A DNA stretch of 64,000 nucleotides from an uncultured Candidatus Binatia bacterium (GCA_958295985.1 OY282432.1:3928517-3992516); one strand, 5' to 3'; shown: positions 8,979 to 58,767, numbered from the stretch's first letter. Numbers and translations are program-made. The notes: a model not told the origin generated them from the sequence alone.

Positions 8979-9100
8979 CCTCCCGGCCCGGGTTGTTCGT
9001 GGGTTTCCCGGAATGAGATGGCCAAAATATTTAACAGATCAGACCTCGGGGCGCGAGTCGGGAATCACGCACTCTCGATGATGCCGATCAGCCGGCTGTT

Positions 9101-9141
9101 CTTGTACTTTAATCATATACTCTTGTACATTTAGAGTGTAC
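9101..9141 (+). promoter_or_regulatory. AT-rich promoter/operator region upstream of phd-vapC, with three TGTAC half-sites
   Basis: This is the only strongly AT-rich stretch in the first 16 kb. It contains cTTGTAC (9101-9107), cTTGTAC (9122-9128) and TGTAC (9137-9141). The last two form the inverted repeat GTACA-N7-TGTAC. The exact -35/-10 could not be fixed. Confidence 0.35.
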
Positions 9142-9165
9142 TTAATATAGGGAAAGGTGGACCTG

Positions 9166-9408
9166 ATGGCAAACATGATGGGAGCGGCGGAGTTCAAGGC
9201 GAAATGCCTTCGTATCATCAACCGGATGAACGAGGACCGTGAGCCGGTGACGATCACCAAGCGGGGACGACCGGTGGCGGTGCTGTCTCCCGTGCAGGCT
9301 CCGGGCGAAAGCCCGTCGATTATCGGCGCGATGCGGGGTTCGGTGCTGGCTTACCACGAGCCATTCCGGCCTGCGGCCGATCCCTCCGACTGGTCCGCCG
9401 CGGGATGA
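9166..9408 (+). CDS. phd: Type II antitoxin, Phd/YefM family
   Basis: ORF 9157..9408. ATG at 9166 follows AGGGAAAGG. The sequence MANMMGAAEFKAKCLRIINRMNEDREPVTITKRGRPVAVLSP is the typical Phd/YefM N-terminal fold signature. There is a 4-nt ATGA overlap with the PIN gene. Confidence 0.8.
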   Translation: MANMMGAAEFKAKCLRIINRMNEDREPVTITKRGRPVAVLSPVQAPGESPSIIGAMRGSVLAYHEPFRPAADPSDWSAAG

Positions 9409-9818
9409 TCGTACTCGACACTCATGCGTTGATCTGGATCGTCAACGACGACCCAGGGCTTGGGAGCACTGCCCGTACCGTGATCGACGACACGGTACGG
9501 ACCGACTTCGTGTTGGTCTCCGCCATCACCGCATGGGAGATCGCCCTGCTGGCCCAGAAGGGCCGCCTGTCTCTCGGACGTGAGGTCGGGGCCTGGATCA
9601 AAACGGCCCTCGCCCTGCCGGGAATAAGGCTCGCACCCATCGAGCCGGAGATCGCCGTGGACAGCGTGCGGTTGCCCGGCTCTTTTCACGCCGACCCTGC
9701 CGACCGGCTCATCGTCGCCACGGCCCGCCATTGGGACGCCCCGCTCCTGACTGCCGACGACGCCATCCTCGACTACGGCACTCGCGGACACGTCCGCACG
9801 GCCGACGCCACGAAATAA
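9405..9818 (+). CDS. vapC: PIN-domain ribonuclease toxin VapC
   Basis: ORF 137 aa reading MIVLDTHALIWIV...VSAITAWEIALL...DPADRLIVATARHWDAPLLTADDAI. The acidic PIN residues are in the expected places and the gene is coupled to phd. Confidence 0.85.
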   Translation: MIVLDTHALIWIVNDDPGLGSTARTVIDDTVRTDFVLVSAITAWEIALLAQKGRLSLGREVGAWIKTALALPGIRLAPIEPEIAVDSVRLPGSFHADPADRLIVATARHWDAPLLTADDAILDYGTRGHVRTADATK

Positions 9819-9838
9819 CGTCGATAACGTCGAACGTC
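9815..9838. repeat. Tandem direct repeat ATAACGTCG x2 plus a partial third copy (AACGTC)
   Basis: Read directly: 9815-9823 is ataacgtcg, 9824-9832 is ataacgtcg and 9833-9838 is aacgtc. It starts at the vapC stop codon, about 100 nt upstream of lexA. Confidence 0.7.
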
Positions 9839-9911
9839 CGCGGCATCTCACTGCCGGCTCCGGACGTGTCACCCGTTTCCTGCGGCCCTGGGTGGGTAGA
9901 GAGCTTGCATA

Positions 9912-9927
9912 CCAGACAAAAGTCTGG
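9912..9927 (+). promoter_or_regulatory. Perfect 16-bp palindrome CCAGAC-AAAA-GTCTGG; candidate LexA operator
   Basis: Read directly. It ends 1 nt before the ATG at 9929 and 13 nt before the ATG at 9941 of lexA. LexA genes are normally autoregulated through a palindromic box in this position. The box sequence does not match any LexA consensus I can recall. Confidence 0.4.
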
Positions 9928-9940
9928 CATGTGCATCTTC

Positions 9941-10543
9941 ATGGCGCCTTTCACTCCACCGGGAGAGACCCGGGAAAAGGTTTACCGGTTCGTTCGCAGG
10001 CGTATCATCGAGGAGCTTCCCCCGACGGTCCGGGAGGTCCAGGAGGCGTTTCGGTTCAGGGCGGTGCAGACCGCCCGGCAGCATCTTGAACGCCTGGTGA
10101 GCGAGGGGCGTCTGGTCAAGGCGCGGGGGAAATCCAGGGGCTATCGCCTGCCGCAAGAGCCGGGAACGCTGCTCGTTCCCTTGCTGGGGCAGGTGCAGGC
10201 CGGCGGACTCAGAGCGGCCATCGAGGAGTGCGAGGGTTACCTCCCGGTCCGGTCACGGGGCTCGGAAGAGCTGTTCGGGCTCCGGGTCCATGGGGAAAGC
10301 ATGACCGGAGCAGGGATCCTTCCAGGCGATATCGTCGTCGTGAGACAGCAGGCGGAAGCCGTCTCGGGGGATATCGTCGTCGCCCTGGTAGGCGATGAGG
10401 CCACCATCAAGAGGCTCCGCCTGCGCCGGAACGGGATAGAGCTGCATCCGGAGAATCCGGCTTTCGCGCCGATCATCCCGAGGACCGATGAATGCACGCT
10501 CCTGGGCAAGGTGGTGGAGGTGCGACGGTATCTGGAAGGGTGA
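9941..10543 (+). CDS. lexA: LexA repressor (SOS regulator, S24 autopeptidase)
   Basis: Lies inside ORF 9731..10543. MAPFTPPGETREKVYRFVRRRI... is a winged HTH. The cleavage site is VQAGG, the catalytic Ser is in HGESMTGAGI and the Lys is in TIKRL. The start could also be ATG 9929. Confidence 0.9.
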   Translation: MAPFTPPGETREKVYRFVRRRIIEELPPTVREVQEAFRFRAVQTARQHLERLVSEGRLVKARGKSRGYRLPQEPGTLLVPLLGQVQAGGLRAAIEECEGYLPVRSRGSEELFGLRVHGESMTGAGILPGDIVVVRQQAEAVSGDIVVALVGDEATIKRLRLRRNGIELHPENPAFAPIIPRTDECTLLGKVVEVRRYLEG

Positions 10544-10553
10544 GGGAGCTTTC

Positions 10554-11201
10554 ATGGACGTTTTCGCCGAAAAGAGCCGTGAGTGGACGGCGAGTCCGGT
10601 CGCCGCCCCCGCGGCAGGGCGGCGCCGGCCTGCCCGTGAACCTGCAAGGGCCTGGAACCTGTCCTCCCTGGCCGGACGTCTCACGGAGATCTCCGACTCC
10701 GGCGCGGCCCCTTCGCTCACGGCCGCCGCCGCCCTGATCCTCCAGGCCCAGCAGCGTGGGGAGCCCGCAGCATGGATCGGTTTCGGCAACTCGATCTTCT
10801 TCCCGCCGGACTTCGTCGAGTGGGGCATCGATCTCGCGGCCTTGCCGGTGATCCGCGTTCCCGACGCCCTCACCGCGTCCCATGCGGCCGACCAACTGCT
10901 GCGCTCCGGGGCTTTCGGGCTGGTGGTGCTGGACCTGAAGGCCCAGGCACGGATGCCTATGGCGGTCCAGAGCCGTCTGGCGGCGCTGGCCCGCAGGCAC
11001 CATGCGGCGCTCCTCTGCCTCACCCGCAAGCAGAAGGGCGCACCCTCGCTGGGACCCCTGGTGTCGCTCCATGGCGAAGGAAGGATCACGCGGACCGCCT
11101 TCAGCCGCTTCAACTGGGAAATCCGCATCGTCAAGGACAAGCGGGGGGCTCCGGGATGGAGCCACACGGAGTCGTGCCGTGGAACGGATGGCCTGTGTTG
11201 A
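10554..11201 (+). CDS. imuA: ImuA (RecA/SulA-like component of the translesion mutagenesis cassette)
   Basis: Lies inside ORF 10488..11201. ATG at 10554 follows GAGGGAG, 10 nt after the lexA stop. The size (~215 aa) and the position between lexA and imuB match the known lexA-imuA-imuB-dnaE2 cassette. Confidence 0.8.
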   Translation: MDVFAEKSREWTASPVAAPAAGRRRPAREPARAWNLSSLAGRLTEISDSGAAPSLTAAAALILQAQQRGEPAAWIGFGNSIFFPPDFVEWGIDLAALPVIRVPDALTASHAADQLLRSGAFGLVVLDLKAQARMPMAVQSRLAALARRHHAALLCLTRKQKGAPSLGPLVSLHGEGRITRTAFSRFNWEIRIVKDKRGAPGWSHTESCRGTDGLC

Positions 11202-12692: not shown

Positions 12693-15600
12693 ATGCCGGT
12701 CCGAACGGGGCAGCTCCCCTCTTCCTATGCGCCCCTCTACTGCAAGAGCCACTATTCGTTCCTCGAGGGGGCGAGCCATCCCGAGGAGCTGCTGGAGAGA
12801 GCGGCGGAGTTGGGGATCGGGTCGCTTGGCCTGACCGACCGGGACGGCGTCTACGGCATCGTGCGGGCTCATGTGAAGGCCCGGGAGCTGGACCTGCACC
12901 TCATGACCGGCTCCCGGATGACCCTGACCGACGGCTCCTCCATCCTCCTTCTCGCCGCGGACGGAACCGGCTACGCCCATCTCTGCCGGCTGATCTCCGC
13001 CGGACGCCTCCGCTCTCCCAAGGGAAAGAGCGTCGTGGAGTGGCACGAGATCTGCGCTCACGCCCGCGGGCTCATGGCCCTCTGGGGTGGAGAGGACAGC
13101 CTGCTGGTGCGGGAGCCGGACCCCGCGTTCGTCGCCCGGGACCTCCGGGACGCCTTCGGCGACCGGCTCTATGCGCTGGTGACCCGCCATCGCCGCGCGG
13201 AAGAGGCGCGGCAGGAGCGGCGGCTGCGGGAGCGGGCGCGGCGCTACGGCATCCTCACCGTGGCGGCCACCGAGGTGCTCTATCACCACCCCTCGCGTCG
13301 CCAACTCCAGGACGTGCTCACCTGCATCCGCCACGGGGTCCGGCTGGCGACCGCGGGGCGTCTGATCAGGCCCAACGCGGAGCACGACCTGAAGTCCCCG
13401 TCCGCGTTCGCGGCCCTGTTCGAGGACGACCCGGACTCCGTCGCCCGCACCCTGGAAGTGGCCGCCCGCTGCCGGTTCTCCCTGGACGAGATCCGCTACC
13501 GCTACCCTTCCGAGAAGCTGCCGGACGGGAAGACCTCCGGGGAGTGGCTCCGGGACCTCACCTTCCAGGGGGCCGGGGAGCGCTACCGCGGCCGCGTCCC
13601 GGAAGACATCCGGACCCAGCTCGAGCGAGAGCTTCAGGTCATCGGCGAGCTCGCCTACGAGGGCTATTTCCTCACCATGTGGGACATCGTCCGGTTCTGC
13701 CGGAGCAACGAGATCCTCTGCCAGGGACGCGGCTCCGCGGCCAATTCCGCAGTGTGCTATTGCCTCGGCATCACGGCCATCGATCCGGTGCGCATGGAAC
13801 TGCTCTTCGAGCGGTTCATCTCCAGGGAGCGGGCCGAGCCGCCCGACATCGACCTCGATATCGAGCACAACCGCCGCGAGGAAGTCATCCAGTACCTTTA
13901 CCGCAAGCACGGCCGCACCCACGCGGCCATGGTGGCCAACTTCATCCGCTACCGCGGGCGTTCCGCGGTCCGGGACGTGGGCAAGGTCCTGGGGCTGGCG
14001 GAGACCGCGGTCCACCGCGTCACCAGGCTGCTGGGCCATTTCGAGCGGGTGGATGCGCAACTGCTCGAAAGCGCCGGCCTCGATCCCCACGTGCATCGGG
14101 ACCTGCTGCGGCTGGTGGCGGAGATCCAGGACTTCCCACGCCATCTGTCCATTCACCCCGGCGGATTTCTGCTCGGCCACAAGCCGGTACGGGACCTGGT
14201 CCCCATCGAGAACGCGGCCATGCGCGACCGCACGGTCATCCAGTGGGACAAGGAGGATCTGGAAAGCCTCAAGCTCTTCAAGGTGGACCTGCTCGGGCTC
14301 GGCATGCTGACCGTCGTCGACCGGTCTTTCCGCCTCATCGGGAAGCACTGGGGCAGGACCTTCTCCCTGGCCACGATTCCCAGGGATGATCCCGCGACCT
14401 TCGCCATGATCTGCAAGGCCGATACCGTGGGGGTCTTCCAGATCGAGAGCCGCGCGCAGATGACCATGCTGCCCCGGCTCAAACCCCGGGAGTACTACGA
14501 TCTGGTCATCGAGGTCAGCATTGTCCGGCCGGGGCCCATCGTGGGGGGCATGGTGCATCCCTATCTGCGCCGCCGAAACGGCGAGGAGACGGTTACCTAC
14601 CCCCACCCCTCCCTAGAACCCATCCTCAAGAAAACACTGGGAGTGCCGCTGTTCCAGGAGCAGGTCATGCGGCTGGCCGTGGCAGCCGCGGACTATACCC
14701 CCGGGGAGGCCGATCAGCTCCGGCGCGACATGGCCGCCTGGAGAAGATCGGGAAGGATCGAGCGGCACCGGGACCGGTTCATCTCCCGCATGGAAGCCAA
14801 GGGCATCAGCAAGGACTTCGCGACCCAGGTGTTCGAGCAGATTCGCGGCTTCGGCGACTACGGCTTCCCCGAAAGCCACGCGGCAAGCTTTGCCTATATC
14901 GCCTACGCGTCGTCATGGCTCAAGCGTCACTACCCCACGGCCTTTGCCTGCGCGCTGCTCAACGCCCAACCCATGGGTTTCTATGCGCCGGCCACCATCG
15001 TGGACGACGCCAAACGGCACGGGGTCCGCGTGCTGCCGGTGGACATCCGTCACAGCGACTGGGACTGCACCCTCGAAAGGCCGGCCGGCGGACAGGCCGG
15101 CGATTCCACGGTCCACGCCCTGCGCATGGGCCTGCGGTACGTGAAAGGACTCCGGGAAGCCGACTGGCAGCGCATCGGCAACGCCCGGCGCAACGGCCCG
15201 TTCCGGTCCCTGGCCGATCTCGCCTCCCGCACCGGGCTGCGCCAGGACATCCTCGACCGCCTGGCCGAAGCCGGAGCACTGACCCCACGGACCTCTCGGC
15301 GGCGCCAGGTCCTCTGGCAGGTCCAGGGACTCCACGCGGCCGGAGGCGATGCCCTGTCCCTCAAGACCCCCGAGGCGCCGGTTCCGTTCGAACCCCTGAG
15401 CGACCTCGAGTCCATTGTGTGGGATTACCGGACCACCGACCACAGCCCGCGGGGCCATCCGTTGACCCACCTGCGCAAGCAGCTTGCCGCTTCGGGGCTT
15501 CCCGACGCCGTGACCGTGCAGCGAATGCCCCACGGCCGCCGCGTGGACTACGCCGGGATCGTCATCTCCCGTCAACGGCCCAAGACCGCCAAGGGCGTCA

Positions 15601-39743: not shown

Positions 39744-41265
39744 CGGCTCCCCCGCCTTGTTCGCGCCCGACCTGCGCATCGCGCATCTGTTGCAACTCCT
39801 GCTGTTTGCGCGCGTTGCGGATGCCGTAGTAGAGGCTGACGGCGATGAGCACCATCACGATCATCACGATGGGACGCGTCATCCACCCGGCGCCGTAACG
39901 GCTGATGGAGATGAACAGGTAGTTCTCGATGATGCCGCTCAGCACCAGTCCCAGGATCAGCGGCGGCCGCGGCCAACTGAACCGCTTCATGAACCAGCCC
40001 AGCAGCGAGAAGAACAGCAGCGACCACAGGTCCCCGTAGTGCCGGGTGGCCTGAAACGATGCCAGGAACACGATGACCACCACCAGCGGCGTCAGCAGGT
40101 TGATCCGCACCATGGCGATCTTGGCCAGGGTGTTGGTCAGCAGCATGCACATGATGGTGCCGAAGATGTTGGCGATGGCCAGGCTCCAGATCATCGTGTA
40201 GGTGACCGCCAGGTCCTTGGTGAGCATGGCCGAGCCCGGTGTCAGCCCCTGGATGGTCATGGCCCCCAGCAGCAAGGCCATGGAGGCGCTGCCCGGCACG
40301 CCGAAGGCGATGGTGGGGATCAGCGCCCCGCCCTCCTTGGCGTTGTTGGCCGCCTCCGGCGCCAGCACACCGCGCACGTCGCCGGTCCCGAAGGTCTCGT
40401 TGGCGCCCTTCTCGGTCTGTATGGCGTGACCGTAGGCGAACCAGTCCACCACCGACGCGCCGAGCCCGGGGATGGCGCCGACGAAGACGCCGACCACGCC
40501 GCAGCGCAGCACCAGTAACCAGTTGCGGAAGGTATCCCGGATCCCCGTCATGACCCCCTTCAGCCGCTCCTTGGGCACGTCCGCGATGCGCGTCCCCCGG
40601 ATGGTCAGGTCGACGATCTCGGGGATGGCGAAGACGCCCAGCGCCACCGGGACCAGCGGCACGCCGTCCCAGAGGTAGAGTTGTCCGAACACCCAGCGGA
40701 GCACACCCGTCTGGGGGTCCATGCCCACCATGCCCACGCACAGTCCGATGGCCCCCGCGATGAGCCCTTTCACCGGCGCGTTGCCGCTCAGGACGGCGAC
40801 CATGGAGATGCCCAGCAGACCCAGCATGAAGAACTCGGGAGAGCCGAACGCGAGCACGATGGGACGGAGCACGGGGATCGAAAGCGCCAGCACCAGCGAC
40901 CCGAACACGCCGCCCAGGAGCGATGCCATGTAGGCGCCGCCGAAGGCTCGACCGGCCTCGCCTTTCTTGGCCATGGGGTGGCCGTCGAGAATGGTGGCCT
41001 GGGACGCCGAGGTGCCGGGGACGCCGAAGAGAACCGAGGGAATGGTGTCGGAGGTGCTCGTCACCGAGATCAGGCCGATCATGATGGCGAACGCCTCGAA
41101 GGAGTCCATGTCGAAGGTGAAGGGCAGGAGGATGGCAAGGCCGACGAGACCTCCAAGGCCGGGTATCGCACCCAACGCCAGGCCCATGAGCACGCCGATG
41201 AACAGATACCCCAGCCGGGTCGGAACCAGGAGGTTCTCAAATGCCACGGTGGCGGCTTCCAGCAT
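39733..41265 (-). CDS. tctA: Tripartite tricarboxylate transporter large permease TctA
   Basis: ORF 510 aa reading MLEAATVAFENLLVPTRLGYLFIGVLMGLALGAIPGLGG..., a typical TctA N-terminus with multiple TM segments. Confidence 0.9.
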   Translation of the reverse strand: MLEAATVAFENLLVPTRLGYLFIGVLMGLALGAIPGLGGLVGLAILLPFTFDMDSFEAFAIMIGLISVTSTSDTIPSVLFGVPGTSASQATILDGHPMAKKGEAGRAFGGAYMASLLGGVFGSLVLALSIPVLRPIVLAFGSPEFFMLGLLGISMVAVLSGNAPVKGLIAGAIGLCVGMVGMDPQTGVLRWVFGQLYLWDGVPLVPVALGVFAIPEIVDLTIRGTRIADVPKERLKGVMTGIRDTFRNWLLVLRCGVVGVFVGAIPGLGASVVDWFAYGHAIQTEKGANETFGTGDVRGVLAPEAANNAKEGGALIPTIAFGVPGSASMALLLGAMTIQGLTPGSAMLTKDLAVTYTMIWSLAIANIFGTIMCMLLTNTLAKIAMVRINLLTPLVVVIVFLASFQATRHYGDLWSLLFFSLLGWFMKRFSWPRPPLILGLVLSGIIENYLFISISRYGAGWMTRPIVMIVMVLIAVSLYYGIRNARKQQELQQMRDAQVGREQGGGADEA

Positions 41266-41300
41266 ACGGACTCCCTTCTGCCTAGGTAAAATCGACGTGG

Positions 41301-41329
41301 GATATATCGAGGTCCGGACAGGCTGTCAA
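41301..41329 (-). promoter_or_regulatory. Sigma70-like promoter for the tctA operon: TTGACA-N17-TATATC
   Basis: The minus strand reads cggTTGACAgcctgtccggacctcgaTATATCccacg. The -35 (41329..41324) overlaps the TGA stop of the Hsp70-like gene. The -10 lies at 41306..41301, ~35 nt upstream of the tctA ATG (41265). Confidence 0.4.
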
Positions 41330-43101
41330 CCGTCGCCGCAAGCCGGATCATTCGAAGCCCGCCCACACACGGCACATGGCTCATAGTAGAGCCTTTCGTG
41401 TACCTGCCTCTCGGGCGGCCGCCGCCGTGAATCAAAGTAGCCCGGGTCGTACTGATGGAGAAACTCGCCCGGCACAAGCGATAGATCTTCCCGGTCAGAT
41501 ACATTAGCTCGCACACGGATCGTAGCTAATGGTGACGTGGCTGACTCCGGCTCCTTCAGGCCAGGTGTATCATCGCCATCATCGCGAACAGATCCGACAG
41601 GCTCGCTGTCGGGCGGGAACTTGAGCCCAAATTCAAGGTCGTGAACTTCGCAACAGTCCTCGTCCTTCCGGTTTAGTGAACGTGCGTGGGCTTTTAGAAT
41701 GAGGTCCTCGTTGATCTGAATATCGAGTTCCAGTCGTTCGTCGAACGCATGCGCCTTCGAATCGACTTTGACCGTGACGTTCTCCAAGTGAACTCTGGGC
41801 TCACTGCGCAACACCATTGGTCCCGGACGCGTCGGAGCGCAAAGCTGGAATTTGGCCATCCCGTCGCGTGGATCGGTGCAGTAGAGATGCAGTGTCTGAG
41901 TCTGCTCCTTTCCCTGCTTGGGCATTGGGGTTCCGGCCTTGACAACCTGCAGATATGAATTGCGCGCCAGCTCCAATTCGATACTCTTCGCCAACTGGAG
42001 ACCTACCTCGTCCGCCGCGATCCAAGCCGCTCCACCTGCAATCAAAGTCGTCGTGCTGTCAGGGATCTCGACTCGCTCGGGGCCAAACAATTCGTGGAGC
42101 CGACGTTCAACGGCAGGCATATTGGACATACCTCCCGTCGCCACGCAAAGCACGATCTGCTCCGGCGAGTAAGCAGCATCATCCAGGATGCGCCGGATTC
42201 GCTCAAAACCTTTTTTGAGTAACGGATCAACAATATCTTCAAGCTCACGCTGACTCAACGAACAGTCGAATCCCTCGTCTTCTACGCCCTTGAAGAAGCT
42301 ATCAACGTATATCCTCACGTCGGAACGGCCAGACAAATCGATTTTGGCCCGTTCGCAACGGTCCATCAGGCGCGACATGGCGCCCGGATATTTATCCACA
42401 ATGTCACCAAGAGATCGCTCCTGCCCGATCCGTTGCAAGAGACGATTCATAATAGTTTCATCGAAGACATCGCCGCCGACTTCATCAGTGCCATCGTTCT
42501 TGAGCTGAACTACCATGTCACCCATGACGCGGCAAAGTGTCAAGTCCAATGTACCACCACCCCAGTCGGCTACCAGGATGACCTTCCCATCGTAACGGCG
42601 TCTCATCTTCGGGAATCCCCGTACTCGAAACAAACCATAGAGCGCCGCCAGGGGCTCATGGACGAACTGCACGATACCTAGTCCAGCAAGATTGAACGCT
42701 TCCCGAAGCGCCTGCCGCTGAACGCCTCCCATACCTACCGGGATTGTAACCACCGCCCGGGAGATTTCTCCAATATCACGGCTGCTATCCTGTGCCTGTT
42801 GATAAACGTGTCGGACAACGTCGGCGACCATGTCCATCGGGCGCTTTTCTATCCCCTCGACGAACACGCTGTCCCGACCCAGGTACATCTTCGGCGACCG
42901 GACGATGTTTCCTTGAATGCCTAACCCGGCTTGCGCGAGACGTTCCTTTGCCTCCCGCCCGCAAATCGTCTGCGCACCCTCATAGCAAACCACCGATGGA
43001 ATGGGCAGATTCCGGTCATCAAGGAAGTTTATCGGCCGGTTTCCGCGAACAATGGAGATAAGGCTGTTTGTTGTCCCAAAATCGAATCCGAGCACGTTCA
43101 T
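41326..43101 (-). CDS. Orphan Hsp70-family ATPase with a non-canonical C-terminus (protein C of the candidate system)
   Basis: ORF 591 aa. NBD motifs: GFDFGTTNS (phosphate-1), NIVRSPKMYLGR, HEPLAALYG, DWGGGTLDLT (phosphate-2) and ATGGMSNMPAV (adenosine). A beta-sandwich-like segment follows. There is no helical lid or EEVD; instead there is an acidic linker and a terminal CAVCGRASNDPAC. G+C is lower than in the flanking genes. Confidence 0.85.
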   Translation of the reverse strand: MNVLGFDFGTTNSLISIVRGNRPINFLDDRNLPIPSVVCYEGAQTICGREAKERLAQAGLGIQGNIVRSPKMYLGRDSVFVEGIEKRPMDMVADVVRHVYQQAQDSSRDIGEISRAVVTIPVGMGGVQRQALREAFNLAGLGIVQFVHEPLAALYGLFRVRGFPKMRRRYDGKVILVADWGGGTLDLTLCRVMGDMVVQLKNDGTDEVGGDVFDETIMNRLLQRIGQERSLGDIVDKYPGAMSRLMDRCERAKIDLSGRSDVRIYVDSFFKGVEDEGFDCSLSQRELEDIVDPLLKKGFERIRRILDDAAYSPEQIVLCVATGGMSNMPAVERRLHELFGPERVEIPDSTTTLIAGGAAWIAADEVGLQLAKSIELELARNSYLQVVKAGTPMPKQGKEQTQTLHLYCTDPRDGMAKFQLCAPTRPGPMVLRSEPRVHLENVTVKVDSKAHAFDERLELDIQINEDLILKAHARSLNRKDEDCCEVHDLEFGLKFPPDSEPVGSVRDDGDDTPGLKEPESATSPLATIRVRANVSDREDLSLVPGEFLHQYDPGYFDSRRRPPERQVHERLYYEPCAVCGRASNDPACGDG

Positions 43102-43102
43102 T

Positions 43103-44203
43103 TCAACTATGACCTCTATCTCCTCGTAGCCGCTCTCTCTCGGATTTCAGGCCGTCAATAACACGCTCCGCGTGGTCGACCATGACATGGACCTTGGGAG
43201 GCTCCCGTAGCAGTGCACGAAGCCCTTCGTCGAGCAACGACAATTCCGTCGTCAATCGACCTATGACCCCACCCCGCAGGTTTTCATAGTCATCTTGGAA
43301 ATGGGCTCTGTTGTCGGCATGCTCTTTTCGTTCCCGTTCAAGTTCCTTCCGGAACGTGTCGACTTCAGCTTGTGAGGTCGCCAGCTTGGCCTGAATTTTG
43401 GCTAACGCTTCTTCCAACTCCTCCACTCGCTTCGTAGCGCGTGATTCCCGTATTTGAGCAGCGTCGGCGCGCTCGCTCTGCTCAAGAGCCTGTCTTCGCA
43501 GTATCCCAGCCGCAATCTGTGCAGCCGCAGGGTCCCGTGTGCTCATCAGCACACGAAGCCTGCCCGCATCAGTGTTTACCCGTCCTACCGCGGGCTCCCA
43601 CAGGCTCTCCGCTAGGTAGTGATGGACGCGCTCGACATGTACCTCACGCATCATCCTAAACCAGAGCAACAGGCATTTCACCGCATTCTCCCTGCATTGC
43701 CCCCTTTCCTTGGCAATCAGCTTGCCACTATCCGGCCAAGACAATTCCCCGTAGTCCCGAGAAGCCAGCGCCTCGATCGCCGGACCTTCCACCTCGGCTA
43801 GCGATTCCTCTGTGAACGCGGGGTGCCTCCGGAGCACCTCGTGGACGAATTTGCCTATTTGGTCAGTAACAGGCGATGGATCGATCCCAATGCCAAGCAG
43901 CGTCAGTTGAAGTGTCCGTTTAAGCGTTCGATCTGCTACTGTCTGGTTAAGGATATCATCGCTCTCCTGCAAGCCTAACGCCCGGGCGCCGCACATTGCT
44001 GAAAGTTCCTTCTTCGTCAGTGCCTTGCGTTTGAATGTACCGGCGTAAACGGCACGGAGCAATTGTTCTACGCTCTCGATAGGCGGAATCTTTATGTGCG
44101 CCTTACGTTGGACGGCATCGATGGCCGCCGTAACCCCCCGAGCAGAAGAGTCTGCCTCCAACGGGTCACGGTTCTTGGCAGGCATTGGGTTGGTGTCGTT
44201 CAT
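43103..44203 (-). CDS. Helical/coiled-coil protein of unknown function (protein B of the candidate system)
   Basis: ORF 43103..44245. ATG at 44203 lies 8 nt after the upstream TAG. The stop junction is TGAaATG with the Hsp70-like start. The C-terminal third is heptad-like and charged (...RVEELEEALAKIQAKLATSQAEVDTFRKELERERKEHADNRAH...). I recognise no family. Confidence 0.6.
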   Translation of the reverse strand: MNDTNPMPAKNRDPLEADSSARGVTAAIDAVQRKAHIKIPPIESVEQLLRAVYAGTFKRKALTKKELSAMCGARALGLQESDDILNQTVADRTLKRTLQLTLLGIGIDPSPVTDQIGKFVHEVLRRHPAFTEESLAEVEGPAIEALASRDYGELSWPDSGKLIAKERGQCRENAVKCLLLWFRMMREVHVERVHHYLAESLWEPAVGRVNTDAGRLRVLMSTRDPAAAQIAAGILRRQALEQSERADAAQIRESRATKRVEELEEALAKIQAKLATSQAEVDTFRKELERERKEHADNRAHFQDDYENLRGGVIGRLTTELSLLDEGLRALLREPPKVHVMVDHAERVIDGLKSERERLRGDRGHS

Positions 44204-44211
44204 CGTGGTCC

Positions 44212-45309
44212 CTAGGAATGCTTCCGAATCATGGACTCCGCCCATGTCTCCAGTCCGGGCGAGTTATGAAGTTCCTTAGCATGTTGAAGTGCTCTCTCGC
44301 CATTGCCGGAAGCGGTGTATATTTCGGCCAGAAGAATGTGTAACTTGACGCGATCATAACTCGCGATAACTCGACGCAGAAAAGTCTCCATATCCGCCAC
44401 CTTCTGAGATAGATCATCAATCTGCAGAACTGCCCAACCGACAATCTTTTCAGTTTCCCAGTCCGTTACCGAGGCATCCAGGTTACCGGGCACAGCAATG
44501 CCATCGGTCCCTACGTCAGTACCACTCGTTGAACTTTCCATCCAAGCCGCATATCTTGCGGCCGCACGGCCAACGCGCACACCGTCCGCCAGACGCGCCG
44601 CATCCTTGAAGTGATTGAAATGAAACTCGATCAGGCCGCCAATCATCCTTGCCAATGGCCGCTCGTAACCGGCCAGATCCTCAGCGGCCTTGTTGAACTT
44701 GTGAACATATTCATCATACGAAAGCAAAGAATCGGGAGCCTTTTCCTTCGCACGCACGCCGTACAGGTAGGCGCAAATACCATCGCAATAGCCGATAGCG
44801 GAACGGCATCCCGACGTGCCAGAGATGAATTCTTCGACGGCACGAATGTCGAGACGTCCCTTGGAAGCTGTGCTCTTGAACTGATCCTCAATGGCTATGA
44901 GATCTTCTTCTGAAGCAATTCGAAAATCCAACGTAAACTCTTTCCGGCCGCCAGCATTGATCAGCACTAAACGACATACATCGGATTTCACTTGAGCAAG
45001 GCGGACAGGAACTGCGCAGACATTCATCTTTTCGCCGTTGAGAACGGCTTGGTGGCAATTCTCCACGCACACATCTTCGGCGGTGATTGGCCGTGTGACT
45101 CGACGCGGGGCCGCGCCCAACTCCTGGCCCTGGAGAAACAGAGTGGGGTAAGTCAGTGGGTGCCTTGCAAATCGATGCGTGTGTAGCTCATCGCTAGACG
45201 GAAAGACTTCGGTGCACTGTACGCATGGGAACTCTGGATGCGTCGGCTGGTAGTCTTCCAGACCGATATCCATATGCTGATCCATGTACCCGGTGTGCCA
45301 GAATCCCAT
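44212..45309 (-). CDS. Protein with an N-terminal classical C2H2 zinc finger and a helical C-terminal region (protein A of the candidate system)
   Basis: ORF 365 aa. Residues 29-50 read CVQCTEVFPSSDELHTHRFARH, i.e. C-x2-C-x3-F-x5-L-x2-H-x4-H. The C-terminus is TPR-like (...LLAEIYTASGNGERALQHAKELH...). The start is uncertain because the SD before ATG 45309 is weak. Confidence 0.6.
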   Translation of the reverse strand: MGFWHTGYMDQHMDIGLEDYQPTHPEFPCVQCTEVFPSSDELHTHRFARHPLTYPTLFLQGQELGAAPRRVTRPITAEDVCVENCHQAVLNGEKMNVCAVPVRLAQVKSDVCRLVLINAGGRKEFTLDFRIASEEDLIAIEDQFKSTASKGRLDIRAVEEFISGTSGCRSAIGYCDGICAYLYGVRAKEKAPDSLLSYDEYVHKFNKAAEDLAGYERPLARMIGGLIEFHFNHFKDAARLADGVRVGRAAARYAAWMESSTSGTDVGTDGIAVPGNLDASVTDWETEKIVGWAVLQIDDLSQKVADMETFLRRVIASYDRVKLHILLAEIYTASGNGERALQHAKELHNSPGLETWAESMIRKHS

Positions 45310-45384
45310 TCCTACGTCACCGATTCCACGGCCCGGGAAGATCTACGTACAGTGACCACGTGTGCTTCTCAAGGCCGAAATGAC

Positions 45385-45654
45385 TTACGCTATCCGTCTC
45401 GCCGCGACAGCCTTGGCCAGATCATGGGTCGCCTGCAAGTTCATCCAGAGCTTCGGCGACGTGCCCAGGGTCGCGGCAAGGTCGAGCGCCGCCTCCACCG
45501 TAATGCCTCGCTTTCCTCGTATCAGCTCATTCAGGCGCGCCCGGCTCCAGCCGATCTTCTGTGCGAAAGCTGCCTGGCTCATTCCCATGGGCTCAAGAAA
45601 CTCCTCGAGCAGCATTTCGCCCGGATGGAAGGGATTCTTCGGTTGTTTATCCAA
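45385..45654 (-). CDS. higA: HigA-type antitoxin / XRE-family HTH protein
   Basis: ORF 89 aa reading ...HPGEMLLEEFLEPMGMSQAAFAQKIGWSRARLNELIRGKRGITVEAALDLAATLGTSPKLWMNLQ, the canonical HigA/VapI HTH. Confidence 0.8.
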   Translation of the reverse strand: MDKQPKNPFHPGEMLLEEFLEPMGMSQAAFAQKIGWSRARLNELIRGKRGITVEAALDLAATLGTSPKLWMNLQATHDLAKAVAARRIA

Positions 45655-45666
45655 CGCCCTGCCTCC

Positions 45667-45957
45667 TTAGCGATAGTCGATGATCCGCACGCCACGGGCG
45701 TGGCCCCCACTCCATTGAAACACCAACCGCCACCGGTCATCGATCCTGATGGAACGGAACCCTTTCCAGGTTCCCTTGAGACTCTCCAGCCGGTTACCGG
45801 AGGGCATTCTCAGATCTTTCAGGTCTGCTGCATCGTGGAGATACAATAGCTTGCGTCTGGCCGTCCGGCGTAGCTCTGGAGGAAAGAACCGTGTTGCCTT
45901 GCTTCGCTTGTCGTTGAACAGATCCTCCGCGAGAGCATTGCCAAACTCCAGGATCTT
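45667..45957 (-). pseudogene. higB: HigB-family (RelE/ParE superfamily) toxin homologue lacking a canonical in-frame start codon
   Basis: Not in the ORF track. Hand translation of the open frame 45966..45670 gives CAN-KILEFGNALAEDLFNDKRSKATRFFPPELRRTARRKLLYLHDAADLKDLRMPSGNRLESLKGTWKGFRSIRIDDRWRLVFQWSGGHARGVRIIDYR*. An in-frame TAA lies at 45969..45967. The codon where HigB proteins have Met (M-I-x-x-F) is AAG. The first ATG/GTG/TTG in frame would give only 58 aa. Confidence 0.55.
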
Positions 45958-46158
45958 GTTAGCACATTATCGGAATACCGAAACAAGGCCAAGCGAAGCC
46001 GCCGCCGGGCAACCGCGGGACCATTCCGCTATGGACCGGGCGCCCCCGGCGTCCCCGTTGCGGGATTTCAGCAAAAATACTATACCCGGCCTACTATCCG
46101 AACAAGGGCGCCCTCCGAGCCGGGGATGCCCCGTAGCCTCCCGGAAAGGACCGTCACC

Positions 46159-47123: not shown

Positions 47124-47744
47124 CTATAGCGGCGCCGGCCCCGCGAAATCCTTGATGTAAGGCAGTTTTTCCGCGGTCTTGTCCACCTCGGCCATGTTGT
47201 TGAGCAGCAGCGCGGTGGAGTCCCACGAGCCCGTGGTCAGGGCGTTGCGGTGGCCTTCACTGATGTCGATGTCGATGTCCGTGCCATCGGGCAGGCGGAT
47301 CTTCCGGGCGTCGAGGTCCACGGTGAGCTCCACCTCGGGGTCGGACTCCACCAGCGTCATGAGCTTTCCGATGTCCTCCGGCGAGGCCGTCACCGTGGGC
47401 AGGCCCAGCAGCACGCTGCTGCCGGCGAAGATCGGACCGAAGGATTCCCCGACGACGGCCTTGATGCCCCAGCGGTACAGGGCCTGCGGCGCGTGCTCCC
47501 GCGACGACCCGCAACCGAAGTTGCGGTTCACCAGCAGGACCTCGGCGCCCTGGAAGCGGGCCTCGTTGAACGGGTGCTCCACCGGGTTGCCGTCGGCGTC
47601 GTAGCGCTCGTCGAAAAACGGGTACTCGCCCATGCGATTGAAGGTGATCTCCTTGAGGTAACGGGCCGGAACGATTCGATCGGTATCGATATCGTGCCCC
47701 CGCACCACCACCGCCCTGCCGCTTACCTGTTTGATCTCGTTCAT
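47124..47744 (-). CDS. leuD: 3-isopropylmalate dehydratase small subunit
   Basis: Lies inside ORF 47124..47891, starting [31 protein letters not shown]...[12 protein letters not shown].... There is an ATGA overlap with the leuC stop. Confidence 0.9.
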
Positions 47745-49153
47745 GCCGGCCTCGATCCGTTGTATTCGCGCACGTCCACGACCTTGCCGTTCAAGGCGGC
47801 CGCGGCCACCATGGCGGGGCTCATCAACAGAGTCCGCCCGCCCGGGCTCCCCTGGCGGCCGATGAAGTTGCGGTTCGACGAGGACGCGCACACCTCACGG
47901 CCCTTGAGCTTGTCGGGGTTCATGGCCAGACACATGGAGCAGCCGGCCTCCCTCCATTGGAAGCCCGCTTCGGTGAAGACACGGTCGAGCCCCGCCGCCT
48001 CCGCCTGTTTCTTGACCTCGACGGAACCGGGCACCACCAGCGCTCTCACGCCCTCGGATACCTTTCTACCCTCGGCAACGCGCGCCGCGGCCACGAGGTC
48101 CGAGAACCGCGAGTTGGTGCAGGAACCGATGAACGCCACGTCGATGGAGGTCCCGAGAATCGGCGTCCCCGGCGTCCAGCCCATGTGCTCGTAGGCCTTC
48201 TCGACCGTCTTGGGATCTTGCAGCTCTTCGGGGCGCGGGAGGTTCTCCAGCACTCCCAACGCCTGTCCGGGATTGATGCCCCAGGTGACCGTGGGCTCGA
48301 TGGCCGAGCCGTCGAGGTCCACGACGTCGTCATAGCCCGCGTCCGGATCCGACGCCATGGAGCGCCAGTACGCCACCGCGCGATCGAAGGCTTCGCCCTT
48401 GGGTGCGAACTGCCGTCCCAGCAAGTAGTCGAAAGTGGTCTGATCGGGGTTGACGTAACCCACCAGCGCGCCGCCCTCGATGCTCATGTTGCAGACGGTC
48501 ATGCGTTCTTCCATGTTCATCCGGTCCAGCACCGGGCCGCCGTATTCGTACGCGTACCCCTTGCCGCCGCCGACTCCGAGCCGCCGGATGATGGTGAGGA
48601 TCACGTCCTTGGCGTGTACCCCCAGAGGGAGGCTGCCGTTGACGTTGATGCGCCGCACCTCGAGCCGGTCCATGGACAGGGTCTGGGTCGCCAGCACGTC
48701 CCGGACCTGGGTGGTGCCGATGCCGAAGGCCAGGGTCCCGAAGGCGCCGTGGGTGCTGGTGTGGCTGTCGCCGCAGGCCAGCGTCATCCCCGGCTGGGTG
48801 AGCCCCAACTGCGGACCGATGACGTGCACGATGCCTTGCCGGGTACTCTCCAGACCGTAGAACTCGATGCCGAAATCGCGGACGTTCCTTTCCAGCGCCG
48901 TCATCATCGCCTCGGCCTGTTCGTCGGCAAAGGGCCGGGCATGGGTATCCGTGGGGACAATGTGATCGGCAGTGGCGAAGGTCCGCTGGGGATAGGCGAT
49001 GGAAAGCCCCCGTTCCCGCATCATGTCGAACGCCTGCGGGGTGGTGACCTCGTGCACCAGATGCAATCCGATGAAGAGTTGGGTCTGCCCGGTGGGGAGC
49101 GTGGTCACCGCATGGGCGTCCCAGACCTTGTCATAAAGTGTGCGTTCGGACAT
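47741..49153 (-). CDS. leuC: 3-isopropylmalate dehydratase large subunit
   Basis: ORF 470 aa: an aconitase-family protein with Cys ligands (...[14 protein letters not shown]..., ...IGSCTNSR..., ...CSMCLAMN...). Confidence 0.95.
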
Positions 49154-56991: not shown

Positions 56992-58767
56992 TTACGCCGG
57001 CAGCACGGCGTCCACGTCCTCGCCCTTTGTCCGCGAGGACCCGCGCGCGGTCTTCAGTTGCGGCGGATCTTCCAGCATCATCTCGTGATGGGCGCCGCCG
57101 GCCGGGATCATCGGATAGCAGTTCTCGAACCGGTCGATGGCGAAGTTCATCAGCGCCGGGCCCTTGTGCCTGAGCCCCTCCTTCAGCACCGCCTCCACGT
57201 CCGCGGGGCCTTCCGAGTGCAGCCCGAGGATCCCGTAGGCCTCCGCGAGCTTGACGAAATCCGGGACGGCGCCCAGGTCGCTGGAAGCGTAACGTCCCTG
57301 GTAGAAGAGGTCCTGCCACTGCCGCACCATGCCGTGGAACTGGTTGTTGAGCAAAATGATCTTGACCGGGAGCTTGTGGATGGCCGCCACCGCCAGCTCC
57401 TGAAGATTCATCTGGAAGCTGCCTTCACTGGTGATGCAAAGCACGGTCTTGTTGGGATACGCCTTCTGCGCGCCAATGGCGGCCGGGAATCCGAAGCCCA
57501 TGGTGCCGAGCCCGCCGGAGGTGAGAAAAGTGCGTTGGGTGGCGCCCTTGAAATACTGCGCCGCCCACATCTGGTGCTGACCCACGTCGGTGACGACGAT
57601 GGCCTTGTGCCGGGTCAACTCGTAGGCCTTCTCGATGACGTACTGCGGTTTGGTCTCCTTCTTGCCTTCCTGCTGGTAGGACAGCGGATGCTCCGAGGCC
57701 CATTCATTCACCTGCTTGAGCCACGGGCGGCGCTGCGCCTTGACGCTGGCGGGGTTGCCGTCCATGGAGCTCAACAAGCCCACCAGCTCCCGCAACACCA
57801 CCTTCACGTCGCCGACGATGGGGATGTGGGCGTGGACGTTCTTCTTGATGGAAGTCGGGTCGATGTCGATATGGATCACCCGGGCCCGTGGTGAGAACTC
57901 GGACAGCTTGCCGGTCACGCGGTCGTCGAAACGGGCGCCCACGGCGATGAGCAGGTCGGCCTGGTGCATGGCCATGTTGGCGCAGTACGTGCCGTGCATG
58001 CCCAGCATGCCCATGGACAGCGGATGGTTCCCGGGAAAGGAGCCGAGGCCCATCACCGTCATGGTCAAGGGGATCTGCGTCAGGTCCGCGAACTCACGCA
58101 CCTCGTTGGCCGCGCCGGAAAAGACCGCGCCGCCGCCCACGTAGATGACCGGCTTCTTCGCCTTCAGGATCTCGCCGGCGGCCTGCTTGATCTGGTAGCG
58201 GTTGCCGGACACCGTCGGGCGGTATCCCCGCAGGTTGACCTTGTCGGGATAGCGGAACTCCGCGGATTCGGTGCTCACGTCCTTGGGGATATCCACCAGC
58301 ACCGGACCCGGGCGGCCCGTGTTGGCGATGTAGAAGGCCTCCTTGATGGTGGCGGCGAGGTCGGCAACGTCCTTCACCAAGACGTTGTGCTTGGTGCAGG
58401 GACGGCTGATCCCGATGTTGTCCGCTTCCTGGAACGCGTCGTTGCCGATGAGGTTGGTGGGGACCTGTCCGGTGAACGCCACCAGCGGCACGGAGTCCAT
58501 CATGGCGTCCGCCAGGCCCGTTACGATGTTGGTCATCCCCGGACCCGAGGTCACCAGGGCGACGCCGGCCTTGCCCGTGGCCTTGCCATAGCCCTCGGCC
58601 ATGTGCACCGCGCCTTGCTCGTGCCGGGTCAGGATAACCTCGACGTCTTTCTGTTGGTGCAGGACGTCGAACAGCTTGAGGACCACTCCGCCGGGAATTC
58701 CGAAAACGGTCTTCACTCCCTCGCGCTTGAGCGACTCCACAAATATTTCCGACCCGGTCAACTTCAT
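56992..58767 (-). CDS. ilvB: Acetolactate synthase large (catalytic) subunit
   Basis: ORF 591 aa, a ThDP enzyme (...GIPGGVVLKLFD...GPGMTNIVTGLADA...GGLGTMGFGFPAAIGA...). Confidence 0.95.
   Translation of the reverse strand: MKLTGSEIFVESLKREGVKTVFGIPGGVVLKLFDVLHQQKDVEVILTRHEQGAVHMAEGYGKATGKAGVALVTSGPGMTNIVTGLADAMMDSVPLVAFTGQVPTNLIGNDAFQEADNIGISRPCTKHNVLVKDVADLAATIKEAFYIANTGRPGPVLVDIPKDVSTESAEFRYPDKVNLRGYRPTVSGNRYQIKQAAGEILKAKKPVIYVGGGAVFSGAANEVREFADLTQIPLTMTVMGLGSFPGNHPLSMGMLGMHGTYCANMAMHQADLLIAVGARFDDRVTGKLSEFSPRARVIHIDIDPTSIKKNVHAHIPIVGDVKVVLRELVGLLSSMDGNPASVKAQRRPWLKQVNEWASEHPLSYQQEGKKETKPQYVIEKAYELTRHKAIVVTDVGQHQMWAAQYFKGATQRTFLTSGGLGTMGFGFPAAIGAQKAYPNKTVLCITSEGSFQMNLQELAVAAIHKLPVKIILLNNQFHGMVRQWQDLFYQGRYASSDLGAVPDFVKLAEAYGILGLHSEGPADVEAVLKEGLRHKGPALMNFAIDRFENCYPMIPAGGAHHEMMLEDPPQLKTARGSSRTKGEDVDAVLPA

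Follow-up and report, generated by a model that had tools for sequence, protein, structure and literature searches.

Introduction

What does an Hsp70 do when none of its usual partners is encoded beside it? The question is raised by a gene cluster in a stretch of 64,000 nucleotides (nt) from an uncultured Candidatus Binatia bacterium (GCA_958295985.1 OY282432.1:3928517-3992516; we will refer to the whole stretch as "the window"). Here, the gene of an Hsp70-like ATPase (C) follows those of a C2H2-finger protein (A) and a coiled-coil protein (B), and no J-domain protein or GrpE gene adjoins C in the window, as an initial annotation made from the sequence had already remarked. That annotation treated A, B and C, together with a start-less higB and a higA upstream, as a five-gene defence or stress module that might be under HigA control.

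The comparative analysis reported here keeps the core of that proposal, a defence candidate as read from genomic context, and drops its link to HigBA. Judged from synteny, the conserved functional unit is three genes, not five (hereafter, the triad). We consider A-B-C a self-contained mobile operon whose most likely function is defence against phages or mobile elements, a reading drawn from context and held with moderate confidence. Because it is often wedged in known anti-phage operons (BREX, Hma), the triad is probably an undescribed chaperone-based defence module, acting autonomously or in association with BREX or Hma, by a mechanism that we infer below.

The A-B-C Operon and Its Distribution

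In the window, the three genes are read from the minus strand. Gene A (44212-45309) encodes 365 amino acids (aa) comprising a C2H2 finger, a beta domain and a helical repeat; gene B (43103-44203) encodes 366 aa, counted from the ATG 8 nt past the A stop; and gene C (41326-43101) encodes a lid-less Hsp70 of 591 aa. All five open reading frames (ORFs) described on this strand were found, and direct reading of both junctions ('tcc TAG ggaccacg ATG' for A/B, 'agt TGA a ATG' for B/C) confirmed the coupling proposed for the last three. Translation of A, B and C is coupled, and the three genes are inherited together in every case.

More than 1,900 homologues of C were retrieved (the best 120 are full-length and 64-71% identical), besides 276 matches of A and 52 of B, with the same contigs recurring across the three independent lists. 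A profile of A, run against one genome per GTDB species, gave 70 loci, distributed among Gamma- and Betaproteobacteria, Desulfobacterota, Hyphomicrobiaceae, Binatia, Acidobacteriota, Gemmatimonadota, Nitrospirota, Latescibacterota, Planctomycetota and Actinomycetota. Wherever the contig permits, tblastn finds A, B and C in this order, on one strand and with tight spacing, B always lying between A and C in the 70-locus survey. A full-length C was recovered in 56 loci from about ten phyla, bearing out the expectation that A-like and B-like genes would be syntenic with C in unrelated genomes. In an exhaustive profile search, the A family amounts to 852, 535 or 283 clusters (50% identity) at E<=1e-3, 1e-10 or 1e-30, respectively, among 1.84 billion, nearly all of them with the same architecture of ~370 aa; the family is real but rare. 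The NCBI labels are 'hypothetical protein' for A and B and 'Hsp70 family protein' for C. Two triads from metagenome-assembled genomes (MAGs) look disrupted: in L021 (12515-18075), ~5.5 kb with two equal 477-aa ORFs separates B from the C match, and in L007 (11278-12808) breaks affect both B and the 5' part of C.

Defence Neighbourhoods

The flanking ORFs of all loci were clustered and the cluster representatives scanned against protein families, and known defence genes were found in the neighbourhoods, as anticipated: BREX, Hma, restriction-modification (RM) and a plasmid defence cluster. At 13 loci the triad lies inside or beside type I BREX operons, usually in the order BrxA-BrxB-BrxC-PglX-[A-B-C]-(GmrSD)-PglZ-BrxL; in L034, L038 and L055 it follows BrxL, and in L027 a PglX relic is retained. 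Two insertion sites, the pglX-pglZ interval or the position after brxL, are therefore used. In the Caballeronia locus (L036), the TGA of pglX is followed after 2 nt by the ATG of A (9996-10003), and the TGA of C overlaps the pglZ start in ATGA (14257-14260), so that translational coupling to BREX genes exists at either end of the triad.

An Hma operon is entered in a similar manner, Thiocapsa (L018) showing HmaA-[A-B-C]-HmaB-HmaC. In Rhodoferax (L031), a DUF1156 methyltransferase, a phospholipase D (PLD)-helicase and a dynamin/MIT_C gene precede A-B-C. Single loci have HsdR (L017), an HKD+Snf2 protein (L046), an SNF2 helicase (L023) or PglZ (L049) as neighbours. Relics of the A 5' end (first 73-85 codons) persist in L063 (10001-10261), between an HmaA-like helicase and a DUF1156 methylase, and after brxL in the BREX loci L066 (10001-10222) and L067 (4760-4981), from which it follows that the triad has been gained and lost in both kinds of locus. 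The conjugative Paenarthrobacter ureafaciens plasmid pA (L071) carries an A gene split by an IS3-family transposase (9001-10919), and also encodes B, an 'Hsp70 family protein' and a 446-aa protein; two DUF262 genes stand on one side, and a GIY-YIG nuclease and a DEAD/DEAH helicase on the other.

These same contexts would also be expected if the triad were not autonomous, being instead an accessory of methylation-based defence (BREX, Hma/DUF1156-type, type I RM), either as an assembly or turnover chaperone or as a guard that captures Ocr/ArdA-like anti-restriction proteins or fires on inhibition. Such a dependence is supported by the nesting in BREX, where codons overlap or abut at both ends, by the nesting in Hma, by the place beside a DUF1156 methyltransferase and PLD-helicase, by A relics left at corresponding sites of further BREX and Hma loci, and by the recurrence of the association on several deep branches of the C tree. 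However, about three quarters of the loci, including the window and its 73%-identical relative, show no gene of BREX, Hma or RM systems within 10 kb (brxA, brxB, brxC, pglX, pglZ and brxL are all absent from the window), and the insertion position varies between the pglX-pglZ interval and the site after brxL. The pglX-pglZ interval also hosts unrelated defence genes, such as the GmrSD-type BrxU, so nesting there need not mean functional dependence. We rate the accessory role as rather unlikely.

In some lineages, further genes accompany the triad. A gene of ~970 aa with dynamin_N and MIT_C (PLD-like) domains occurs, on the triad strand, at nine loci (L029/L031/L034 7054-9978; also L043-L046, L048 and L054), ~20-90 nt upstream of A in seven of the nine; the remaining two have it placed between brxC and pglX. 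Its product may serve as an additional effector or as an independent accessory of BREX. Actinobacterial loci hold a fourth gene encoding a coiled-coil protein of ~450 aa with no family match (L052 14045-15406; L053 5177-6514; L056 6898-8262; L057 14235-15587; L071 14310-15650), which in four actinobacterial loci lies at most ~20 nt past C, sometimes overlapping it, and in L050 lies upstream on the opposite strand.

Composition, Borders and Mobility

The window triad belongs to an island of low G+C (41266-46125) between tctA and the gene of a luciferase-like monooxygenase (LLM). In 500-nt sliding windows, the G+C content is 0.52-0.59 over 41250-46000, as against 0.63-0.70 on either flank; none of the 32 2-kb windows falls as low as the two spanning 42001-46000 (0.558 and 0.551) apart from these two themselves, the remaining 30 having a mean of 0.653 (range 0.616-0.699). 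Third-codon-position G+C (GC3) is 0.56-0.61 in A, B and C, 0.91 in tctA and 0.86 in leuC. The horizontal acquisition previously suggested from a handful of hand counts is thus upheld by a clear deviation in both measures: the five-gene cluster is compositionally foreign, and the triad was horizontally acquired. Compared with a 98%-identical relative, dN/dS is 0.37-0.51 for A, B and C and 0-0.04 for leuC and tctA, figures that rest on small counts (7-24 substitutions per gene); the raised ratios would fit a conflict gene.

The flanks are as formerly described, with tctA/tctB of a tripartite tricarboxylate transporter operon downstream, and the LLM gene and leuCD among the metabolism genes upstream. 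Neither a tRNA, an integrase nor convincing flanking or direct repeats were found at the island borders; promoter and terminator scans of the locus performed no better than chance, and an Rfam scan of the window gave no match. A 591-aa ORF at 56992-58767 was considered as a paralogue of C and rejected, the two proteins being unrelated. A sponge-associated source is possible for the window: its LeuC (leuC, 47741-49153) shares a 90%-identity cluster with a record filed under the sponge Geodia barretti, and several triad loci come from MAGs with names hinting at sponge (Candidatus Spongiihabitans) or marine cave.

Beyond the window, a neighbour-joining tree of C is incongruent with taxonomy, and BREX-linked copies fall on several deep branches, interleaved with stand-alone and dynamin-linked copies. 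No A homologue was found in phage genomes, a result that is neutral for the defence reading.

HigBA as a Local Passenger

Two more genes of the foreign cluster precede A on the minus strand. The antitoxin/XRE regulator gene higA (45385-45654) matches TIGR02607 with 97 bits (cutoff 47.7), and the higB-like frame (45667-45957), whose start codon is mutated, matches PF05015 with 52.8 bits (cutoff 27). The missing start, correctly noticed in the initial annotation, is explained by comparison with the 98%-identical assembly (L072): the window frame starts with AAG at 45955-45957, and L072 has an ATG at 5146-5148 and is called as a 96-aa HigB (higB 5' end: window gtgctaacAAGatcctg, relative gtgctaacATGatcctg; longer stretch around the start: window ...gtgctaacAAGatcctggag..., L072 ...gtgctaacATGatcctggag...). 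A single T-to-A change (ATG to AAG) accounts for the loss, and with its AAG start beside an intact higA the window higB appears as a freshly inactivated toxin gene whose antitoxin has been kept.

In a more distant relative (L073, with A 73% identical), the triad occupies the same chromosomal site (leuCD, LLM gene, A-B-C), and higBA is absent. A 13-codon relic of the higB 5' end (MILALGNALAKNR, then a stop codon) remains at 7953-7994, just upstream of the A ribosome-binding site, and suggests that the L073 triad is driven from the former higBA promoter. This relic, together with the loss or inactivation seen in these genomes, implies that HigBA joined the triad early in the lineage and was later deleted or inactivated, and HigBA may have acted as promoter donor to the triad in the window lineage. 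Outside this lineage the association is not seen: HigB or HigA adjoins the triad in none of 70 loci from other genomes, which makes HigBA a local passenger rather than a triad component. The five-gene unit has to be given up accordingly, and control by HigA can apply to the window lineage at most, since HigBA is absent beside the triad elsewhere and higB is mutated here.

The known toxin-antitoxin-chaperone (TAC) systems are HigBA-type, and the arrangement in the window recalls them, with a HigBA pair adjoining a chaperone gene as in HigB-HigA-SecB-like chaperone units. The triad might then control the stability of HigA or HigB. A spacer of 75 nt (45310-45384, minus strand) parts A from the upstream HigBA of the same strand, no terminator-like site was detected in it, and the 13-codon relic before A in the 73% relative makes the linkage older than the closest strains. 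Synteny largely refutes such a unit, however: the linkage is unconserved (0/70 other loci), the 73% relative has kept A-B-C without higBA, and the window higB has lost its start with A, B and C intact. Unlike the SecB-like TAC chaperones, moreover, C is an Hsp70, and the HigA found here is a minimal protein of 89 aa. A TAC-like role is in consequence barely tenable.

Protein C, an Hsp70 Without a Lid

Residues 3-364 of C are an Hsp70 nucleotide-binding domain (NBD; PF00012, E 2.9e-46). The second half, which the initial annotation had left as an unknown domain, can now be read further. An AlphaFold2 (AF2) model of C (predicted local distance difference test score, pLDDT, 79) aligns in Foldseek with full-length DnaK, BiP and Hsc70 across 500-540 columns, the best structural match being DnaK 7krv (template-modelling score, TM, 0.65; root-mean-square deviation 4.5 Å). 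From this alignment, residues ~365-497 model as an Hsp70 beta substrate-binding domain (SBDbeta) docked on the NBD. Sequence profiles do not detect this domain: a profile of the C-terminal half gave no match to PDB sequences, and Pfam gave none on 25 C-terminal halves of C homologues. No helices of the alpha-helical lid (SBDalpha) follow residue 497 in the model. The layout is thus NBD (1-364), SBDbeta (~365-497), a variable linker (~498-525) and a conserved Cys-rich tail of ~65 aa. After the hypervariable linker, the tail ends in CxxC-x8-CxC, a Cys4 motif present in 55 of 57 C sequences, and is predicted to be a small module of zinc-binding type. C has the same length in the 98%-identical relative as in the window.

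In an alignment of 57 C sequences, 42-70% identical, GFDFGTTNS, K71, E149, DWGGGTLD, GGD and GG..P are invariant in all; by these motifs, C is predicted to be a catalytically intact Hsp70. It falls far below the family cutoffs of TIGR02350 (DnaK; 146 bits, cutoff 822) and HscA (138, cutoff 709).

Such a protein could simply be a chaperone specialised for proteostasis or stress and equipped with co-factors of its own, as in HscC/DjlC or HscA/HscB, serving a single host client or a few and having no part in immunity. C is a bona fide Hsp70 with ATPase motifs and SBDbeta intact, three-component Hsp70 machines are the norm, and the window operon abuts metabolic and transport genes at a site kept across 73%-identity relatives. 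Against this stand the patchy distribution, incongruent phylogeny and small size of the family (535 clusters at E<=1e-10 among 1.84 billion), its foreign composition and a dN/dS above that of housekeeping neighbours, and the repeated nesting in defence operons as well as in a plasmid defence cluster; neighbour clustering also revealed no conserved candidate client gene adjoining the triad. We regard such a chaperone function outside immunity as unlikely.

The actin/Hsp70 fold leaves room for still another function, in the maintenance or competition of mobile elements, with C as a segregation ATPase or the triad as a device for excluding rival plasmids. The actin-fold superfamily includes the ParM-type segregation proteins, C weakly matches MreB_Mbl (PF06723, 31.7 bits), the triad is horizontally mobile, and one copy resides on a conjugative plasmid. 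C is, however, far nearer DnaK than ParM/MreB and possesses an SBDbeta, most copies lie on chromosomes in neighbourhoods free of mobile-element backbone genes, and a plasmid search gave only 2 matches among 72,556 plasmids, all of which makes this function very improbable.

Proteins A and B, Two New Families

A begins with an invariant MGFWHTGY, followed by a zinc finger (C29, C32, H45, H50; C-x2-C-x12-H-x4-H) whose ligands are invariant in 31 homologues, a beta domain (~56-130) and a helical-repeat domain (~134-364). In the AF2 model (pLDDT 84.5), the beta domain is small and the helical repeats take up the C-terminal part. Pfam, NCBIfam and PADLOC gave sub-threshold C2H2 matches only. As a candidate fold for A, TPR/Sel1-type repeats were the only similarity that Foldseek returned from PDB and BFVD, weakly (TM <=0.3, E >=0.007), and no fold is assigned on that account. 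No conserved HPD motif is present in the A or B alignments, nor any DnaJ match in Pfam/NCBIfam. A is a new protein family, with no recognisable co-chaperone or other family among those searched.

B starts with a disordered N-tail of variable sequence; a helical domain, a coiled coil (~235-310) and a C-terminal helical motif follow, the first and last of these three being conserved. Against Pfam, NCBIfam, PADLOC and PDB, no family reached its cutoff and matches stayed at coiled-coil level; a B profile run on PDB sequences likewise yielded coiled-coil noise. The similarity to GrpE (E 0.039 in NCBIfam, 0.31 with the PDB profile) is in both cases confined to the coiled coil. B is a new protein family too, and the statement that neither A nor B belongs to a recognisable family has thus held against Pfam, NCBIfam, PADLOC, PDB and BFVD.

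Comparison With Known Systems

With the canonical Hsp70 machines (DnaK-DnaJ-GrpE; HscA-HscB; HscC-DjlC), the triad shares an Hsp70 built of NBD, hydrophobic linker and SBDbeta, its intact catalytic motifs, and two partners in the same operon. It departs from them in the Cys4 tail that takes the place of the alpha-helical lid, in A and B, which have no J-domain/HPD motif or GrpE fold, and in being a mobile, rare operon associated with defence loci.

Genes nested in BREX, such as BrxU, are single-gene nucleases. The triad resembles these GmrSD-type genes in its position in the pglX-pglZ interval, its co-transcription with the BREX genes and its frequent place beside a GmrSD gene; unlike them, it is not a single-gene nuclease and has no evident effector.

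Hsp70-like domains have been described in predicted defence before. CnuD/CnuCD of the type III CoCoNuT McrBC-type systems contain Hsp70-like NBD/SBD (Bell et al., eLife 2024; PMC11090510); CnuD combines HEAT-like repeats and coiled coils, shows ties to McrBC-like GTPases and is described as having degenerate nucleotide motifs (PMC11090510). These Hsp70-like units frequently occur in superoperons that also hold BREX, type I RM or the like (PMC11090510). The triad, like CnuD, brings together an Hsp70, helical repeats and a coiled coil. CnuD works with an McrB-like NxD GTPase, McrC/DUF2357 and HEPN RNases, whereas the triad is without these: no McrB-like GTPase, McrC/DUF2357 or HEPN protein occurs in the window or among the identified recurrent neighbour clusters. 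The motifs of C are invariant, and its repeats and coiled coil are on separate proteins, CnuD being compared here by its description.

HSP70 has further been reported in GTPase-centric conflict systems, as DO-GTPase/tubulin/HSP70 and as GAP1-N2 with HSP70-GrpE-DnaJ (Kaur et al., eLife 2020; PMC7159879). The likeness lies in an HSP70 engaged in a predicted NTP-dependent conflict, and in the dynamin-like GTPase of a subset of triad loci. Those systems, however, include TRAFAC GTPases together with tubulin or a canonical GrpE/DnaJ pair, and the triad has neither; a TRAFAC GTPase and a tubulin homologue are absent from the window, and elsewhere only dynamin/MIT_C is found, at 9 loci.

In the full-text literature, CoCoNuT type III and the GTPase/GrpE-DnaJ conflict systems were the only cases of Hsp70-like domains in predicted defence, and no description of the triad was found in a search of papers open to full-text reading. 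A 2026 survey of BREX diversity mentions neither Hsp70, DnaK nor chaperones (PMC12839542). PADLOC-DB v2.0.0 has no family for A or C at E<=0.1, and B gave only coiled-coil noise (<=15 bits). The earlier opinion that the system is uncatalogued agrees with these searches, and none of the four contrary outcomes named in the initial annotation was observed (A and B in known co-chaperone or housekeeping families, a catalogued triad, C homologues apart from A/B, an unremarkable composition). We place the triad with Hsp70-type machines and with the conflict systems that contain an Hsp70, to which it adds two new partner families; it appears to be undescribed.

Proposed Mechanism

How could such a machinery act? 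A would be the specificity subunit, its finger and beta domain recognising an invader-derived protein or nucleoprotein, and its helical repeats might pass the target to C, as a J-protein or TPR (tetratricopeptide repeat) co-chaperone does for ordinary Hsp70s. C would clamp or remodel this target through an ATP-driven cycle. B, probably dimeric, may scaffold the complex and/or reset the nucleotide state in a GrpE-like fashion. As output, a phage or host factor of essential function would be sequestered or unfolded at the expense of ATP, in place of nuclease, NADase or pore activity, and some lineages may possess an extra effector, either the dynamin-like GTPase-MIT_C protein or the actinobacterial coiled-coil protein of ~450 aa. 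As a more specific version, we suggest tentatively that the triad could be a stand-alone immune system of a new mechanistic class, whose Hsp70 engine captures or unfolds a phage protein or nucleoprotein complex offered by A as zinc-finger and helical-repeat adaptor, without any nuclease, NADase, pore or signalling effector, or that it is a chaperone guard neutralising the anti-restriction proteins directed at BREX- or Hma-type systems.

Several observations weigh against a role in defence or against this scheme. Most loci, the window included, are stand-alone among housekeeping genes. Among 101 flanking proteins from 27 non-BREX loci (the first ones listed, scanned for family counts), defence matches were sporadic, with <=3 proteins per PADLOC family; no clean enrichment statistic can be derived from such counts, and the defence enrichment accordingly depends mainly on the BREX, Hma and RM cases. 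No recognisable effector domain was found in the triad. The roles of A and B are assigned by analogy only, as Pfam/NCBIfam/PDB-profile scans gave no homology to J-domain, TPR co-chaperone or GrpE families. In C, the tail is modelled at pLDDT <50, and codon 590 of the window gene (41332-41334) specifies Asp at the position of the fourth Cys.

Significance and Perspectives

The triad is carried by cultured hosts, namely Thauera sinica, Caballeronia sp., Thiocapsa sp. KS1, Mycobacterium spp., Micromonospora spp. and, on a plasmid, Paenarthrobacter, and is therefore directly testable. If the defence reading is true, the mechanics of chaperones would be tied to prokaryotic immunity by a mobile Hsp70 that resides in BREX and Hma operons and has private, non-homologous partners, and a defence strategy without an enzymatic effector would be added to those known. 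It might also explain part of the unclear restriction step of BREX and Hma, or their resistance to phage inhibitors. Besides, A and B are two new families, one of which may replace J-proteins and the other nucleotide-exchange factors, which bears on the evolution of Hsp70.

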